DNA of 49,315 nucleotides, the filler included, from Jimgerdemannia flammicorona (Eukaryota), in the NCBI GenBank assembly GCA_003990765.1. It is 2 parts of 2 records of this genome, joined end to end, with 100 filler letters (N's around TTAATTAATTAA, not from the genome) between each part and the next. Parts side by side here need not be neighbours in the genome. Positions count along the whole stretch, not along the records: positions 24,712 to 49,315 come from RBNJ01000953.1; 1 more part is not named here. One strand, 5' to 3'. Numbering within the stretch: position 1 is the stretch's first letter; every line of letters starts with the position of its first letter. The translations under genes and the position numbers were made by a program. This document shows positions 24,749-32,160 of this stretch, piece by piece. The notes under the pieces were generated by a model, which saw only the letters and a list, made by a program, of their open reading frames with translations, was not told where the DNA came from and ran no database searches.

Positions 24749-24943
24749 TATGAATTCTTGATATCAAAATTCAACATCTGTTAAATATTGATATTTGTGA
24801 AATTCTAACATTTGTTAAAGTTTTTATATTTGTGAAATAACTACTATTTATAAGACTATACTATATTTGAGAATTAGATTTAAGTACTATAATCAAATAT
24901 CTATTTTTCTAATTTATATTCCTAATTCAGATCAACTGTCACA
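24749..24943 (-). repeat. 3' LTR (partial; cut by an A-tract and the contig end)
   Basis: Direct repeat of ~31950-32160; begins TGTGACAGTTGATC on minus. Confidence 0.85.
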
Positions 24944-27900
24944 ACTTCCTTCTAAATAGGTAATTTATCTCTGAAATATTTTATTCACTCAAACTCTCAA
25001 GTCTCTATAAGTTATATCTCTTTGTACTATATAATTTGTATCATTATATTCTCTCAATAGTATTTCTTGATATATATATGAAGTCTTCTAAAATTACTTC
25101 TCAAAAATGAGCTAGAGCTGATTTATTATCTTGAAATAGCTTATGTACTTATTTAATAATAGTGATCTGAGTATAAGAGAGTTGACACTCTCTGATCTAG
25201 TCTTCTTTTCCTATTTCTGGCTATAAATTCAATAGTTATCCCAACTTAAAGTATATATTCTTGAAACTCAGTTCAGTTCTAGTAGGTCTTGAAATATAAG
25301 ATTCATAACAAGTATATCTATACTATACTTTAGATACTGTTAAATAATTCCTCTATTATAGATAACTTAGTAGTGTACTATTATCTTTCTATAACTCATT
25401 ATATAGTACTAATAATCTTGAGGGCTATAGTAGTATTTTGTTAATTAGCTATAGTACTTCTTAAGTCAGTTTAGTAAATAATAGTGAGGATAATTGTGCC
25501 TGAGAGTTTTTATAATCAAAAGGTAGTTTTTTTTATATTTTGTACAAGATAAGATTCTTTCTACTTAGGTTTCAGTTTTTATAACTATTAAACTTCTACT
25601 ATATTCTGATATATTAGAACTTTGTCTCCTATCTTAATAATCTCTAAGAGTTTATGAATCTTCTCTACATTGTTTTATTGTAGAATCTATATCTTAGTTA
25701 TATAATTCTTGATCTTTTTCCTAATTTAATATAGTCTCCATATCTCTATATCTATATATTTCTATATAGTATCTCTATTAGATAATAGGATTTCTTAAGA
25801 ACTTTCTTCTCTGAACAGTATTTCTTAAAAGGTAAAATGAGTGCTTTGTAATCTGATATTCTAGATAGTAGATAATACTATTAGCAAATAGTAATCTCAG
25901 TTTTCATAGTTATTATAGATCTTAGTAATAATATTTTTGAAGATCTTATTTATTCCTCTACTTATCTATTTCTCTAAGGGTGATAAGCTGTAGTCTGAAT
26001 ATACTAGATCTTGTACTTCTTATAGAGAACCTCAAAAAACTAGTTTATAAATTCTATTTCTTTATTGGTAGTTACTTATATTGAGATCTTGAATCAGTAG
26101 ATAAAAAAAATTAGCAATAACTATATATTGACTTTCTTACATAGTTTTGCTTCTATCTATTTTATAAAAAAGTCTATAATGATAATAATATATCAGTTAC
26201 CAGTCAAAGTCAAGAGTAGAGAGCTAATTATAACTATTACAATATGAGTAAATAGTACTAATTCTATATGTACTAATTCTAAGATCTGATTTTATTGATC
26301 TTGTTTCTATTTCTAATATTTGTTACAGATTTTGACAAATTATCTAATATCTTTCTCTATTTCTGGCTACTATATTATTCTTCTTACTTTATCATATATA
26401 TTTATTCCTTTCAGATAGCCAGGTTCATATACTAATTTTATTACTTATTTCTTCTTGTGTTCAGATATAATTAGTAATTTTTCTTCTTTTAATATTTCTT
26501 TATTAATTTTGAATTATTTTCATATTCTATTAATAATCATTTGTATTTATTTTTTTAAATACTGGAATATCTTTTACTGTCTCAGATAGATAATAATTCT
26601 ATAGTAGAGTTCCTTATTCATAGTTAATTTACTAGTTGGAGATCCTTTAGAATATCTATAAGAGAGTATCTATATTGGCATTAATTCTTCTAGAATAATG
26701 TATAATAGTTATATTATAGGCTTGCAACTTTATAATCTATCTGACATAGATTTTTTTGGATTGTCCTATGATTAGTAACTAAGTGAGAGCTGAATAATCT
26801 GTCTGGATAATGAAATATCTTTCTGTAAAATAGTAGTAGAACTTTTCTACAGCCCAGATAACTGTAAGGTACTCTAACTTATAGGATTCATATTTCTTTT
26901 TAGCTTCTCAGGTTTCTCAGCTGAGATATACAATAATATACTCTACTTTGTCTTTCTTCTAGACCAGAACTGTCCCTAGTCCTTATATACTTATATCTAT
27001 CTATAAGATGAATTTCTGAGACCAATCTGGTCTTCTGAGGATAGGTGCTTAGGTCAGTCTAATCTTGAACTTATTGAATACTTTCTGCTATCTATCTGCC
27101 TACTGAAACTTGATATTCTTCTTATTGAGATTATAGATTAGATCTGTGATATTGAAGAATTCTCTAATAAATCTATAATAATATAAGATAAACTCTATGA
27201 AGACTTAAGCTTCTATAATAGTAGTAGATCTTAAATATACTACTATTACTTGAATATTGAGAGAGTCTGTATATATTCTATCTTAGTTGATGATGTGGTC
27301 AAGATAGGAGATCTTAATTTCTGTAACTTAGACTTGATATATAGATCATACTTCCTTAGCTTCTCTATTATCTACTAGATATACTATAGATACTCCTCTA
27401 GCATCTTACTATAGATAATTACATCATCCATATAAACTATTATCTATCTTCTTATATCATAGTAGAAGATTTTATTCATTATTTACTAAAAACTTACTAG
27501 GATATTTTATATTCTGAATAGTATTTATAAATAAATATAAGTTATATCTAAGATAATGAAAACTAACTTCTCACTTGCTGCTTCTGTGAGGCTGATTTGG
27601 TAGAATCTTAAATATAAATCTAAAGTACTGTAATATTATACTTTATCTTCCAAGGTTACAAAGATATTACTAATGAGTAGTAGTAGTTGGTAATTCTTCT
27701 TAGTAATCAGATTGAGCTGTACAGAGTCTTAGGGTGAATTCTTCAGATTTGTTTCCTTTCTTTAAAACTAATATAACTAGTGAAGTCTAAGAACTACTGA
27801 CTTTTTTTTTTAATAATATTAGCTTCTTCTATTTATTTGATTTCTTCTCTAAGTCATTTGTAGTAAGCTAATGAAATGAGTCTTGCCTTCTGATAGATTG

Positions 27901-29263: not shown

Positions 29264-31949
29264 GTTTGATGGGTGTGGGTGAAATTGGAAATATTGGTTT
29301 GTTGGTTGTAATATATATTCTTTAGCAATCTTCTTATACTAGTCTTTTTTACTCATTTATTTAACTTTTTTCTTTTTTTTTCTAAATAGTTACTATATAG
29401 CTTCTTCTTGCTTATTTTATCCTTTCTCTATTTTAGTTAGAACTTCTTTGTTAATATTGATAGAGATTTATATCTTCTGTCTACAGTAGATGATCTATAT
29501 CTTTTAGGTATTTAGATTGATTATTTCTCTAGTTTTATAAAGCCATTAATTGCTGATGAGAATGTTATAATTAGTTGTATTAGTTATGATTACATCTACT
29601 GAGATAGTTGCTTTTCTAAACTTAATAAGAATATCTTTGATTTTTCTTAGAGATATAGCTCTTGTACTATCTGCTATAATAAATACTAACTTGATTGCTT
29701 CTTTAACCTCTCATTTTAAATAGTTTACTGTCTTCTTACTGAGAAGACATTCTTTCACTCTAGTATTAATGATAGCTTCAAAGACTCTGTCTTTGATTTA
29801 ATATACTACATAGGTAGATATTTTGTAATTATCTTCACTCTCTTCTCTAGAGTTTTTTTTTTAAATATTATTAGCCTCAGTTATCTTCTAATCTTGATCC
29901 TTAGCTATCTCAGTGAGTCTGAATCTCATTTTTTATCTAAATATGGAAATTTATACTAGCTGACCAAAAGTTACATTGATCTTTTATTGGCTGAGATCCT
30001 TAAAGATATCATACTTGAAGATCTTAGTCTTATGAAGCTTCTTCTTCTTTTCTCTCTCACTGGCTGAAATAGTTCCTTAAATAATATCTTGAACAGCCTA
30101 TTCTAACTTTATATTTTGATATATTTCTTTAGCTTGACTCTCTATAGCAGTTTCTATCTGTTTTTCTACTAAGTTCTTCTTGAGTCTCTCTGGTAGCCTC
30201 TTGTAGAACTCCTTGCAAATATCTGTTTTAGTGATCTGAGTAAGATAAGCCTCTCATTCTTTGTTATTAGATTCTCTAATCTTCTTAAAGATAATAATAT
30301 TAATCTGTTCTTTATTTCAGATAGTATTGCTTGGCTGGGCCTTATGCTTAGTTTTACTTATATATTTATAAGAGTAGTAGTCTTTCTCTATATAGGTACA
30401 GCAGATATCTTTTTCTCTAATTTCTTTTATCATATCTCCTAAATAAGTAATCATATCAGTGAACTTTTTGGTAAGTTTCTATAATGAATCATTATATATA
30501 TCTATAAGTCTCTGGAAATTCTGATAGAAATTTTAATGAAAATTTCTATAGAAATTTCTATAAAATTTTAACTAATAGTCATAGTAACTCAAAGTAGTAT
30601 AACTATATATAGATATATCTAGTATGTATACTATATTTAGTTATAGCTTCAAATATATATAATTACTCTCTATATTAAGTATATTATAACTTTAGTTTTA
30701 CTTTCTCTAAATATAAGAATAAAGCAGTATTCTATTACAAAAAATTCTTAGATCTAACTTGTTAATAATTCTAAGTAATATCTAAACTCTACTATAAAAG
30801 ATAACTAGAACTCAGCACTTTCTTAAGAACTCAGAACTTAGAACTAATAGTTACTATTAATTATTTATAATATAATAATTTTATTAATATATAGTTTTAT
30901 TACGTTTCTCCATAGAGTCACTATTTCTCTATTATTCTATAGCTATTAGCTATAGTGTATTTCAACTAATTACTATAGTAGATATTATACTAGTTATCTT
31001 TGATACTTCAATTCTGACTCTAGTAACTCTTTTCATTATATAGTCTTATAGATATCTGGCTATCTAGTATTACTGAGTATAGGTGACCTTTATAATAGAT
31101 TTAGGACTATTAGTAATGAGCAGATGGGTATGACTATTTCTAGATAGATCTCTTTTATAAAGTTACTTTAGCTACTTGATCTTAGATAGTATCAGTATAA
31201 TTAGTAAAAATTATCTAATATCAGATTCTAGTATAGAATATATTTAGATCTTTACTTATTTCTTAATATGTTATATTGAGCTAATTCTTCAAAACTTGTT
31301 TAATATCATTAGTATAATATATAGTTCAGAGCCAGGTCGTTTATGCTGTTAGTATAATATTATTATTTGTTCTTATATAGATCATAACTGTAAATGCTAC
31401 TCTTGCTAGACCTTAGAGACTGAAGAGTATGAGAGTTATTTACTATCTTACTATTAGAGCCCTAATAGCAGTATATTATTCAAAATCATCAATGAAGGTA
31501 ATGATTGATTTATTTGAAGTATATATATCTATAAAATACTGATGGTCTTATATTTATCTTATCTGAATATCTTAGTTTGATTTATATAGTTATTTAGATA
31601 GTAGTAGTTATTCATATTTAGCTTAAAAGTGAGATATTTATCTTAAATTACTAGTTAATAGATACTAAGTTATAAATAGTAGATACCTAATCTCAGAAGT
31701 ATAGTAGATTTCTGTATCTTAGAAACTTGATCTTGTCCTGACTCTTATAGAGTTCTTAGAATATAGGAGTATAAGTTCAAAGTATATCTACTTACAGGCT
31801 TACTAGTTCTCTTACTTTTCTTTACTTTTGAACTATTTTGATCTAAAGTTTATTTACTCTAAATATTGGAAATATTTATATAAGTTTGCTAGCTATAAGG
31901 TAGCTAAGTTATAACTATATTTTCTGTAAGTTACTTTTTACAAATATAG

Positions 31950-32160
31950 ATTCTTGATATCTGTAAGATTTTAATAATTGTCAAAATTCAACAGCTGTTA
32001 AATCTTGACATTTATGAAATTCTAACATTTATTAAAGTTTCTATATTTGTGAAATGACTGCTATTTGTGAGGCTATACTATATTTAGAAATCAGATTCAA
32101 ATATCATAATCAAATATTTATTTTTCTGATTCATATTTTTAATTTAGATCAACTATTACA
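31950..32160 (-). repeat. Outer part of the 5' LTR (inner boundary not resolved)
   Basis: Begins TGTAATAGTTGATC on minus; aligns to 24749-24943 with almost only transition differences. Confidence 0.85.

Follow-up and report, generated by a model that had tools for sequence, protein, structure and literature searches.

Transposon DNA in the window (the whole stretch of 49,315 nt that was analysed) has accumulated dense C>T transitions on both strands after integration, in CpG as well as non-CpG contexts, and these changes are confined to the transposons. The block under study is, judged from its sequence, the minus-strand relic of a dead Ty3/gypsy retrotransposon from Jimgerdemannia flammicorona, a mycorrhizal fungus of an early-diverging group, or from a closely related species. 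The most likely cause, which we favor with moderate confidence, is a chromatin-directed, methylation-linked (DIM-2-like) C>T mutator of transposon DNA and not RID-type, homology-triggered repeat-induced point mutation (RIP); here we infer the methylation, the enzyme, and the mode of deamination, catalyzed or spontaneous. The SMP-30 ORF is 99% identical to BC936DRAFT_146595 of J. flammicorona, with the next named match at 45% (Rhizophagus), so that the host belongs to Mucoromycota (Endogonales), as the original prediction had supposed, and is not an ascomycete with canonical RIP. RIP and RIP-like mutagenesis are regarded as an ascomycete feature, with traces in some basidiomycetes. Our literature search turned up no account of such a pattern in this lineage, in line with the prediction that it is poorly characterized or undescribed there.

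Table 1. Positions of the element, its insert, and the comparison sequences in the window
Feature	Position	Strand	Remarks
3' LTR (left copy)	24764–24944	−	181-nt gap-free match to 31981–32161, 85% identity
Polypurine tract AGAAGGAAG	reverse complement of 24945–24955		Adjoins the 3' LTR on the inner side; read from sequence
Integrase remnant with stops	25926–26504	−	tblastn HSPs to 3 relatives, E 2e-6 to 1e-5; core motif region included
RNase H remnant	26715–27100	−	Pfam RT_RNaseH_2 E 3.7e-20, RT_RNaseH E 4.4e-17 (translation searched with stops written as X)
Reverse transcriptase remnant	27326–27761	−	Pfam RVT_1 E 1.6e-5, under the gathering score
dUTPase remnant of polyprotein	28166–28609	−	Pfam dUTPase E 9.8e-13; tblastn to relative P0267 E 3e-14
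Histone H4 processed retrocopy, with two 16-nt target-site duplications	28745–29321	−	Inside the gypsy element
H4 target-site duplications	29321–29306 and 28760–28745	−	Perfect 16-nt direct repeat
H4 retrocopy parts	5'UTR 29305–29264; ORF 29263–28952; 3'UTR 28951–28787; poly(A) 28786–28761	−	
5' half of element (gag/protease expected)	29322–31980	−	Unrecognizable; GC 25%, 2 CpG over 29322–32161 (5' LTR included)
5' LTR (right copy)	31981–32161	−	Pairs gap-free with 24764–24944; 12 of 25 inferred C>T/G>A changes
Spacer N44+TTAATTAATTAA+N44	24612–24711		
CpG-free AT-rich block	19215–24611		GC 26%, 2 CpG in 5.4 kb
Plavaka-type DNA transposase relic in that block	about 22289–23055	−	Pfam Plavaka E 8e-15 and 1.4e-7
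Three F-box-like gene paralogues (control)	7002–8045, 10371–11462, 11632–12439		Normal DNA, span 7002–12439
Unclassified repeat, heavily mutated copy	2–1181	−	GC 31%, 0 CpG; 68.9% identity over 1,159 aligned bases to 48144–49310
Same repeat, lightly mutated copy	48144–49310	+	GC 51%, 21 CpG, CpG o/e 0.28

The domains of pol are arranged in the order reverse transcriptase (RT), RNase H, and integrase between the two LTRs, all on the minus strand, with the dUTPase upstream of RT (Table 1); the LTR pair and this domain order place the element in Ty3/gypsy. The tblastn depth is at least 10 across 26662–27728 (RT/RNase H), and up to 149 relatives are alignable in the RNase H region, and no Pfam match of any kind, gag and protease included, was obtained in any frame of the 5' half. 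The domains are spread over three reading frames, which implies at least two frameshifts in the element. The outer flanks of the LTRs (5 nt each) do not match, and on the left the element lies 52 nt from the spacer.

The two LTRs, assumed to have been identical at insertion, differ at 27 positions over 181 nt, of which 25 are transitions and 2 are transversions. The example strings from which the original prediction had read such dense, almost exclusively transitional divergence are located at about 24834–24857 and 32051–32074. The transition excess is significant even with a two-thirds transition expectation (P = 0.0018), as well as against a non-coding gene-space duplicate in the same window (Ti:Tv, 35:15; Fisher P = 0.024) and the pooled F-box paralogues (Ti:Tv, 271:257; P = 1e-5). 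Under the assumed C>T direction, the left and right LTRs carry 13 and 12 changes, respectively, and C>T per C/G site-copy exceeds any other change per site-copy with an odds ratio of 61 (95% CI, 15–542). With the C/G-bearing copy taken as ancestral, 16 of the 25 transitions fall at CpA/TpG, 5 at CpC, 4 at CpT, and 0 at CpG, because no CpG site remains in the pair. The CpA>TpA changes claimed for the LTRs are thus present, but per available site-copy (CpA, 16/56; CpC, 5/10; CpT, 4/32) their excess over CpC+CpT (9/42) is not significant within the LTRs alone (P = 0.49).

Conserved codons of the element have been converted in the same direction. In RT/RNase H, 84 of 163 conserved columns are changed: C>T/G>A steps suffice for 51 codons and reverse transitions for 1, and the remaining 32 call for other changes. 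On the coding strand, 31 steps are C>T and 28 are G>A, meaning that both strands are affected. Conversions of Trp (3), Arg (3), and Gln (1) to stop, Gly to Arg (4), and Pro to Leu (6) were found as anticipated, whereas the likewise anticipated Cys>Tyr is absent among the 84 changed columns. The near-absence of CpG also holds, with only 2 (30903 and 31338) across 6,837 bp of the element proper; the exception is a 545-bp insert that had not been singled out before. In all transposon segments, the C that remains is found preferentially in CpT/ApG (o/e, 1.38–1.84, vs 0.87–0.90 in genes). The border with gene DNA is as sharp as had been described, CpG reappearing at 32589 on the gene side. The 427 bp separating the 5' LTR from the next gene have a GC content of 14% and no recognizable transposon origin.

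The repeat shared by the two window ends, for which no Pfam family was found in six frames of 48144–49310, reveals the sequence context of the changes. With the lightly mutated copy serving as ancestor proxy for the heavily mutated one, the pair shows 252 C>T/G>A changes, 38 reverse changes, and 71 transversions, and 42.5% of the C/G sites in the old copy are changed. The context effect is seen on both strands (chi-square P = 3e-16), with changes at 31 of 42 CpG (74%), 102 of 174 CpA (59%), 86 of 201 CpC (43%), and 33 of 175 CpT sites (19%). As 221 of the 252 changes are at non-CpG sites, the predicted action in CpG and non-CpG contexts is confirmed, and the spectrum is neither CpG-restricted nor neutral, Ti:Tv being near 1 in the gene paralogues; the emphasis on a CpA bias was too strong, the order being CpG ≥ CpA > CpC > CpT. 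A 5' neighbor effect is also seen (RCA, 51/72, vs YCA, 51/101), with 5' T least favored (TCA, 0.40). The changes form 124 strand runs, compared with 110 ± 6.6 expected, showing no same-strand clustering.

Other duplicates in the window were spared. The F-box paralogues, which lie in tandem, are 76–78% identical in pairs, with symmetric changes (Ti:Tv, 94:84, 87:98, and 90:75), a GC content of 52–53%, and 39–56 CpG kept. The polyadenylated H4 retrocopy inside the mutated element is a new observation. It has the features of a LINE-type processed retrocopy, being mRNA-shaped with a 26-nt poly(A), an AATAAA 25 nt upstream of the poly(A), and a target-site duplication whose 16-nt sequence occurs at only those two places within the window. 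The ORF of 103 codons is intact, and the protein is identical to database H4s at 102 of 103 residues. The retrocopy (545 bp) holds 32 of the 36 CpGs of the whole block (o/e, 1.13; GC, 46%), where 118–123 C>T changes would be expected at the rates of the element; it therefore arrived after mutagenesis or escaped it, and may serve as a time marker within the element. A single CpG change is found in it. Processed pseudogenes mediated by LINEs are known for L1 in mammals and Zorro3 in Candida albicans. The H4 insert shares with them the UTRs, the AATAAA, the poly(A), and the target-site duplication (16 nt), and differs in being known from the insert alone, not from a parent gene or a LINE; it would show LINE-type retroposition of cellular mRNA in this lineage. 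The "repeat-targeted" defense of the original prediction, taken as triggered by homology or as a dedicated system, does not follow from the data: these duplicates are unmutated, a pattern that chromatin- or methylation-directed decay fits at least as well. The H4 retrocopy could be a very recent arrival, and selection might have cleared the paralogues of changes, so that neither decides against a homology trigger.

True RIP, a premeiotic homology-triggered scan mutating both copies through an enzyme other than RID, appears unlikely. It would account for the about equal mutation of the two LTRs, the 16 CpA changes among 25, the dominance of C:G>T:A in repeat divergence, and the repetitive nature of all the mutated DNA. 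The thresholds of the usual RIP indices are TpA/ApT ≥ 0.89, (CpA+TpG)/(ApC+GpT) ≤ 1.03, and a composite > 0. These indices are passed by both gypsy halves (composite, +0.28, and +0.41 on 29322–32161 with the 5' LTR included) and the left repeat copy (+0.40), with TpA/ApT of 1.16–1.29; the composite falls short in the Plavaka block (−0.47) and in 1–3700 as a whole (0.0). In Neurospora RIP, CpA stands far above the other contexts, unlike the order found here. Furthermore, two copies of one repeat family carry hugely unequal loads (GC, 51% vs 31%), and the spared paralogues and H4 retrocopy are all duplicates, although their sparing could reflect age, length thresholds, or selection. In the consulted part of PMC9963178, RID-1 is confined to Pezizomycotina, and DIM-2-like homologues are reported in Endogonales and Glomeromycota. 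The latest kingdom-wide k-mer screen, as excerpted from PMC12543289, finds RIP unique to ascomycetes and scores J. flammicorona "no_rip", but may be blind here because the genome is 73% repeats.

An AID/APOBEC-like DNA cytidine deaminase aimed at transposon DNA independently of methylation is still less probable. The dominance of C>T in all contexts and the 5' neighbor effect would be consistent with it, but the strand runs lack the clustering expected from processive single-strand deamination, and CpG is hit hardest, as 5-methylcytosine predicts. Errors of reverse transcriptase or APOBEC3-like editing of cDNA before integration are very improbable and already contradicted: the A-rich coding strand of the retrotransposon (plus-strand AT skew, −0.13 to −0.22) would suit them, but the two LTRs of one insertion diverge only once integrated, neither C>T nor G>A prevails on the coding strand, and the block with the Plavaka DNA-transposon relic, which probably lies on a different contig, is likewise CpG-free and AT-rich. 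Native AT-richness or regional AT-biased neutral pressure, to which the even AT-richer 427 bp beside the 5' LTR might point, is the least credible reading, contradicted by the polarized comparisons (51 codon conversions vs 1), the coexistence of GC-51% and GC-31% copies of one repeat, and the GC and CpG retained by the H4 insert.

The element integrated first, and its chromosomal DNA then took dense C>T changes on both strands, CpG being depleted first, followed by CpA, then CpC, and CpT least, with mutagenesis stopping where the transposon sequence ends. In the methylation-linked reading that we prefer, the transposon chromatin would be H3K9-methylated, and deamination would strike cytosines that carry a methyl group or are bound by a DNMT1-superfamily (DIM-2-like) methyltransferase; the mutator would then be akin to the DIM-2 branch of Neurospora RIP and to that of Dim2-carrying Zymoseptoria. 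DIM-2-type mutation of silent chromatin would account for the restriction to transposon blocks irrespective of element class. If deamination were purely spontaneous, the at least 15-fold C>T excess at non-CpG sites would call for non-CpG methylation of unusual density, and the composite index of the Plavaka block counts against this explanation. It is possible, though on balance doubtful, that Endogonales, devoid of RID, possess a dedicated mutagenic genome defense, independent of or ancestral to RIP and perhaps run by a DIM-2-like methyltransferase. Such a system would tag transposon chromatin and drive active C>T conversion with the preference CpG > CpA > CpC > CpT. RIP-like mutagenesis would then predate or lie outside Dikarya, and a 231-Mb genome made up of 73% repeats would have expanded despite a mutagenic defense. 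A C>T process that affects all contexts and both strands, confined to transposons in a presumably RID-less Mucoromycota fungus, widens the phylogenetic range of mutagenic genome defense, or of dense non-CpG methylation. It provides a natural setting in which to ask whether DIM-2-type enzymes are by themselves enough for such mutagenesis, and it indicates that k-mer screens lose power where a genome is mostly repeats.

Compared with known systems, the pattern resembles RID-type RIP of Neurospora and other Pezizomycotina in its C:G>T:A changes, which are restricted to repeats and strike either strand and both members of a pair, and in its stops, AT-rich CpG-poor relics, and sharp borders; it differs in the Mucoromycota host, the context order, and the unmutated duplicated genes and retrocopy. 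Methylation-associated CpG decay of transposons is known in fungi with DNMT1/DNMT5 (Basidiomycota and Tuber), and TCG hypermutation in Pucciniomycotina was reportedly described by Horns et al. in 2012. Near-complete CpG loss restricted to transposons is common to such decay and the present case, and a CpG-first order fits the lightly mutated repeat copy and the single change in the H4 retrocopy, whereas the load of the old repeat copy, mostly non-CpG, goes far beyond CpG decay. Gladyshev and Kleckner are said to have described a DIM-2/heterochromatin branch of RIP in Neurospora. This branch is similar in that repeats already in silent chromatin are mutated by a DNMT1-superfamily enzyme, of which DIM-2-like genes are reported in Endogonales as noted above; according to the portion of PMC13297926 consulted, however, Neurospora DIM-2 prefers CpT, the context least mutated here, which weakens the DIM-2 reading. 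According to the consulted sections of PMC8016269, Dim2 of Zymoseptoria tritici promotes mitotic C>T mutation at CpA, and its presence goes along with high 5mC levels in transposable elements, likely aiding their inactivation. Zymoseptoria is an ascomycete and has RIP as well. The action of Dim2 is reported as CpA-specific there, whereas CpG and CpC are also strongly affected in our Mucoromycota host; the two systems would have in common a methylation-linked C>T mutagenesis outside CpG that needs no sexual cycle and alters base composition.

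The gene DNA of the window has a GC content of 41-52% with a CpG observed/expected ratio (o/e) of about 0.9-1.1, and the AT-rich blocks 1-3700 and about 19215-32588 are without CpG, the latter apart from a histone H4 insert and four CpGs. In this latter block, two 181-nt direct repeats align without gaps at 85% identity and enclose, on the minus strand, Pfam matches in stop-as-X translations to dUTPase (E = 1e-12), RVT_1 (E = 1.6e-5), and reverse transcriptase (RT)-linked RNase H domains (E = 4e-20), together with an integrase remnant (table). Based on the order of dUTPase, RT, RNase H, and integrase, and on a polypurine tract adjoining the left long terminal repeat (LTR), we assign the element to the Ty3/gypsy LTR retrotransposons; no gag or protease is now recognisable between the LTRs. 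The 12-nt string ATTCTTGATATC is located just outside the left LTR (24748-24763) and just inside the right LTR, on the primer-binding side (31946-31961), the right copy of this context having 21 extra bases, and the edge of the right LTR lies within a 120-nt imperfect palindrome (31936-32054). A repeat unit exceeding 181 nt is one possibility; another is that the element belongs to a tandem or recombinant array. The 427 bp separating the 5' LTR from the first CpG in the adjacent gene (32162-32588) have a GC content of 14%, no CpG, and no recognisable origin; their AT-richness could stem from mutagenesis spill-over, or they could be a relic of greater age or a native promoter. Positions 24612-24711 consist of 44 N, TTAATTAATTAA, which holds stops in all six frames, and 44 N. 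They were probably inserted artificially to link two contigs, in which case the gypsy element begins 52 nt into the second contig and need not be a neighbour of the Plavaka transposon block at the end of the first. The spacer is followed by a 28-nt A run (24720-24747). Scans of the whole window for tRNAs and Rfam families gave no match.

Coordinates and properties of the features analysed
Feature	Position	Strand or orientation	Properties
Repeat copy, heavy decay	2-1181	Opposite to 48144-49310	GC 31%, 0 CpG; no Pfam match
F-box-like paralogues	7002-8045, 10371-11462, 11632-12439		Common LPPELVREVICH motif; 76-78% identical DNA
Plavaka-family DNA transposase relic	about 22289-23055	Minus	In CpG-free block, GC 26%
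Left LTR (3' LTR)	24764-24944	Minus-strand element	Direct repeat of 31981-32161
Integrase remnant	25926-26504	Minus	Found by tblastn with relatives
Histone H4 mRNA-shaped copy	28745-29321	Minus	Inside the dead gypsy element
Right LTR (5' LTR)	31981-32161	Minus-strand element	Direct repeat of 24764-24944
Repeat copy, light decay	48144-49310		GC 51%, 21 CpG (o/e 0.28); no Pfam match

The original prediction held that the LTRs had diverged almost only by transitions, with a bias to CpA resembling repeat-induced point mutation (RIP). The transition bias is real and far from chance, with 25 transitions and 2 transversions among the 27 differences. When the C/G-bearing copy was taken as ancestral, 13 changes fell in the left and 12 in the right LTR, and C>T at C/G sites (25/98 per site-copy) far exceeded every other change (2/362; odds ratio, 61; 95% CI, 15-542). 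The emphasis on CpA was weakened: 16 of the 25 transitions are in the CpA/TpG context, but this excess is not significant given that CpA accounts for 28 of the 49 inferred C sites (rates per site-copy of 16/56 for CpA, 5/10 for CpC, and 4/32 for CpT), and the pair retains no CpG site to score. No same-strand clustering of the changes was detected in the LTRs (P = 0.52 and 0.19), the apparent runs being due to where the Cs and Gs lie. As controls from gene space, the three F-box-like paralogues, in which changes are symmetric and CpG is retained, gave transition:transversion counts of 94:84, 87:98, and 90:75, and a non-coding duplicate gave 35:15; both sets depart from the LTR ratio (P = 1e-5 for the paralogues, P = 0.024 for the duplicate). 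One of the paralogues lies in the opposite orientation to its neighbour, and pieces flanking them are also duplicated (9364-9587 and 13175-13434). Gene-space DNA further contains very long homopolymers, T53 (36674-36726) and A51 (47565-47615), the latter just downstream of a 90-nt tandem duplication (47230-47411); these homopolymers may derive from tails of further retroposed DNA.

The direction of change was examined in conserved codons, using 150 RT/RNase H relatives retrieved by phmmer over 1.84 billion representatives and aligned to the element by tblastn, with columns scored where 25 or more relatives aligned and the consensus reached 60%. The consensus residue was kept in 79 and changed in 84 of 163 columns. 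Of the changed columns, 51 are explained by C>T/G>A alone (43 one-step and 8 two-step), one by reverse transitions alone, and 32 by transversions or mixed changes. On the coding strand, these 51 columns involve 31 C>T steps and 28 G>A steps, indicating that both DNA strands were mutated equally. Most of the predicted codon conversions were recovered among these columns (Trp>stop, 3; Arg>stop, 3; Gln>stop, 1; Gly>Arg, 4; Pro>Leu, 6), whereas Cys>Tyr was absent.

The two unclassified repeat copies at the window ends share 68.9% identity across 1,159 aligned bases after reverse-complementing of the heavily decayed copy. With the GC-rich copy as a proxy ancestor, we counted 252 C>T/G>A changes, 38 reverse transitions, and 71 transversions, so that 42.5% of C/G sites and 6.7% of A/T sites had changed. 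The converted fraction was highest in CpG (31/42; 0.74), followed by CpA (102/174; 0.59), CpC (86/201; 0.43), and CpT (33/175; 0.19), with a significant context effect (chi-square P = 3e-16; CpA vs CpT, P = 1e-14; CpA vs CpC, P = 0.003) and similar fractions on both strands. Non-CpG sites account for 221 of the 252 changes, more than CpG-driven methylation decay alone would give; the spectrum thus extends beyond CpG, as the original prediction held. A 5' T was least favoured (TCA, 0.40; ACA, 0.68; GCA, 0.72). Within the pair, CHG showed no significant excess over CHH (45/125 vs 176/422), there is no plant-like symmetric signature, and same-strand clustering was not detected (124 runs vs 110 +/- 6.6 expected). 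The reverse changes, assigned to the light copy, lie at TpG/CpA in 14 of 38 cases, no significant excess over the 31% expected (P = 0.26); this copy may represent an early stage with loss of CpG only. In every transposon segment, surviving C is enriched in CpT/ApG (o/e, 1.38-1.84), compared with 0.87-0.90 in genes.

Standard RIP indices, whose calculation the original prediction had suggested as a check, are positive in both gypsy halves and the old repeat copy but not in the Plavaka block, where the composite index is negative. Unlike in the gypsy element, CpA/TpG is not depleted in this block (o/e, 1.05). A homologue search for polarising it gave no match among 2,828 candidates. The AT-rich block also contains a tandem array of about 31-nt units (23974-24373; 8 copies, 68-78% alike).

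Of the 36 CpGs in 19215-32588, 32 fall in 28794-29253, within the histone H4 copy. This insert consists of a 42-nt 5'UTR, an intact 103-codon ORF, a 165-nt 3'UTR with AATAAA 25 nt before the poly(A), and a 26-nt poly(A), and is flanked as a whole by a perfect 16-nt direct repeat (target-site duplication) that occurs nowhere else in the window. It lies between the element's 5' half and the dUTPase domain, and its layout is that expected of a LINE-mediated processed retrocopy. The insert has a GC content of 46% and a CpG o/e of 1.13. Had it mutated at the rates seen in the element, it should carry 118-123 C>T changes, and the chance of its showing no new stop would be 5e-4 to 0.04. Its protein matches database H4s at every residue but one, the invariant Ala16, where a G>A change at a CpG (GCT>ACT) has given Thr; the exact protein is absent from a 15-billion-sequence collection, and the homologue list is dominated by long mis-annotated H4s. 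The insert is thus either later than nearly all of the mutagenesis or exempt from it, and is probably a young pseudogene first hit at a CpG. The edges of unmutated DNA are those of the insert; the CpG-free state therefore records the history of each sequence, rather than a regional equilibrium.

A single-exon SMP-30/gluconolactonase ORF (38723-39700, minus strand) is 99% identical to BC936DRAFT_146595 of Jimgerdemannia flammicorona, the next matches being 61% and then 45% (Rhizophagus) identical. The host is therefore J. flammicorona or a very close relative (Endogonales, Mucoromycota), in agreement with the predicted non-Dikarya origin, and is not an ascomycete with canonical RIP; a lead to Zoopagomycota, from the mostly Zoopagomycota nearest Protein Atlas cluster, was overridden by this match. 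In the literature searched, no RIP-like pattern is described for Jimgerdemannia, Endogonales, or Mucoromycota. The relevant passages of PMC7928374 and PMC10386755 deal only with RIP as one fungal defence, or with genome size and repeat content. Badet and Croll 2025 (PMC12543289) concluded that repeat-enriched signatures are peculiar to ascomycetes, and the supplement lists 'Jimflamm' (231-Mb assembly, 73% repeats) with n_repeat 0, ratio 0, and no_rip. The test described there concerns k-mers enriched in repeats over all non-coding DNA, and would have little power where repeats make up most of the non-coding DNA.

RIP of the canonical RID type is unlikely to be responsible. The term RIP-like is fair for the outcome, but membership in RIP proper fails on the context preference, whose order differs from the canonical one; RID-1 is reported from Pezizomycotina only, in a passage of PMC9963178. 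Such changes are absent from the duplicated genes and the H4 retrocopy, but age and selection could account for this. Errors or cDNA editing before integration can be ruled out: the LTR differences arose after integration, the strands are equally affected, and the block with the DNA-transposon relic is also CpG-free. The polarised tests on conserved codons and the repeat pair likewise rule out AT-richness as a native property.

With these rivals excluded or unlikely, we favour methylation-linked deamination with a putative DIM-2-like enzyme, in which transposon chromatin would be silenced, its cytosines methylated, and C deaminated by or downstream of that enzyme. If the deamination were purely spontaneous, the at least 15-fold non-CpG excess would demand very dense methylation, which counts against this reading. 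The same paper (PMC9963178) reports DIM-2-like homologues, which support it, in Endogonales, and the H3K9 methyltransferase Clr4/KMT1 in every Mucoralean species analysed. Precedents for DIM-2-like involvement come from two ascomycete systems. According to a passage of PMC13297926, RIP of heterochromatin-embedded repeats in Neurospora is said to depend on DIM-2, but the enzyme is said to prefer CpT, the context spared here, which counts against the DIM-2-like reading. In Zymoseptoria, as stated in the abstract of PMC8016269, functional Dim2 correlates with high 5mC in transposable elements and promotes mitotic C>T changes at CpA.
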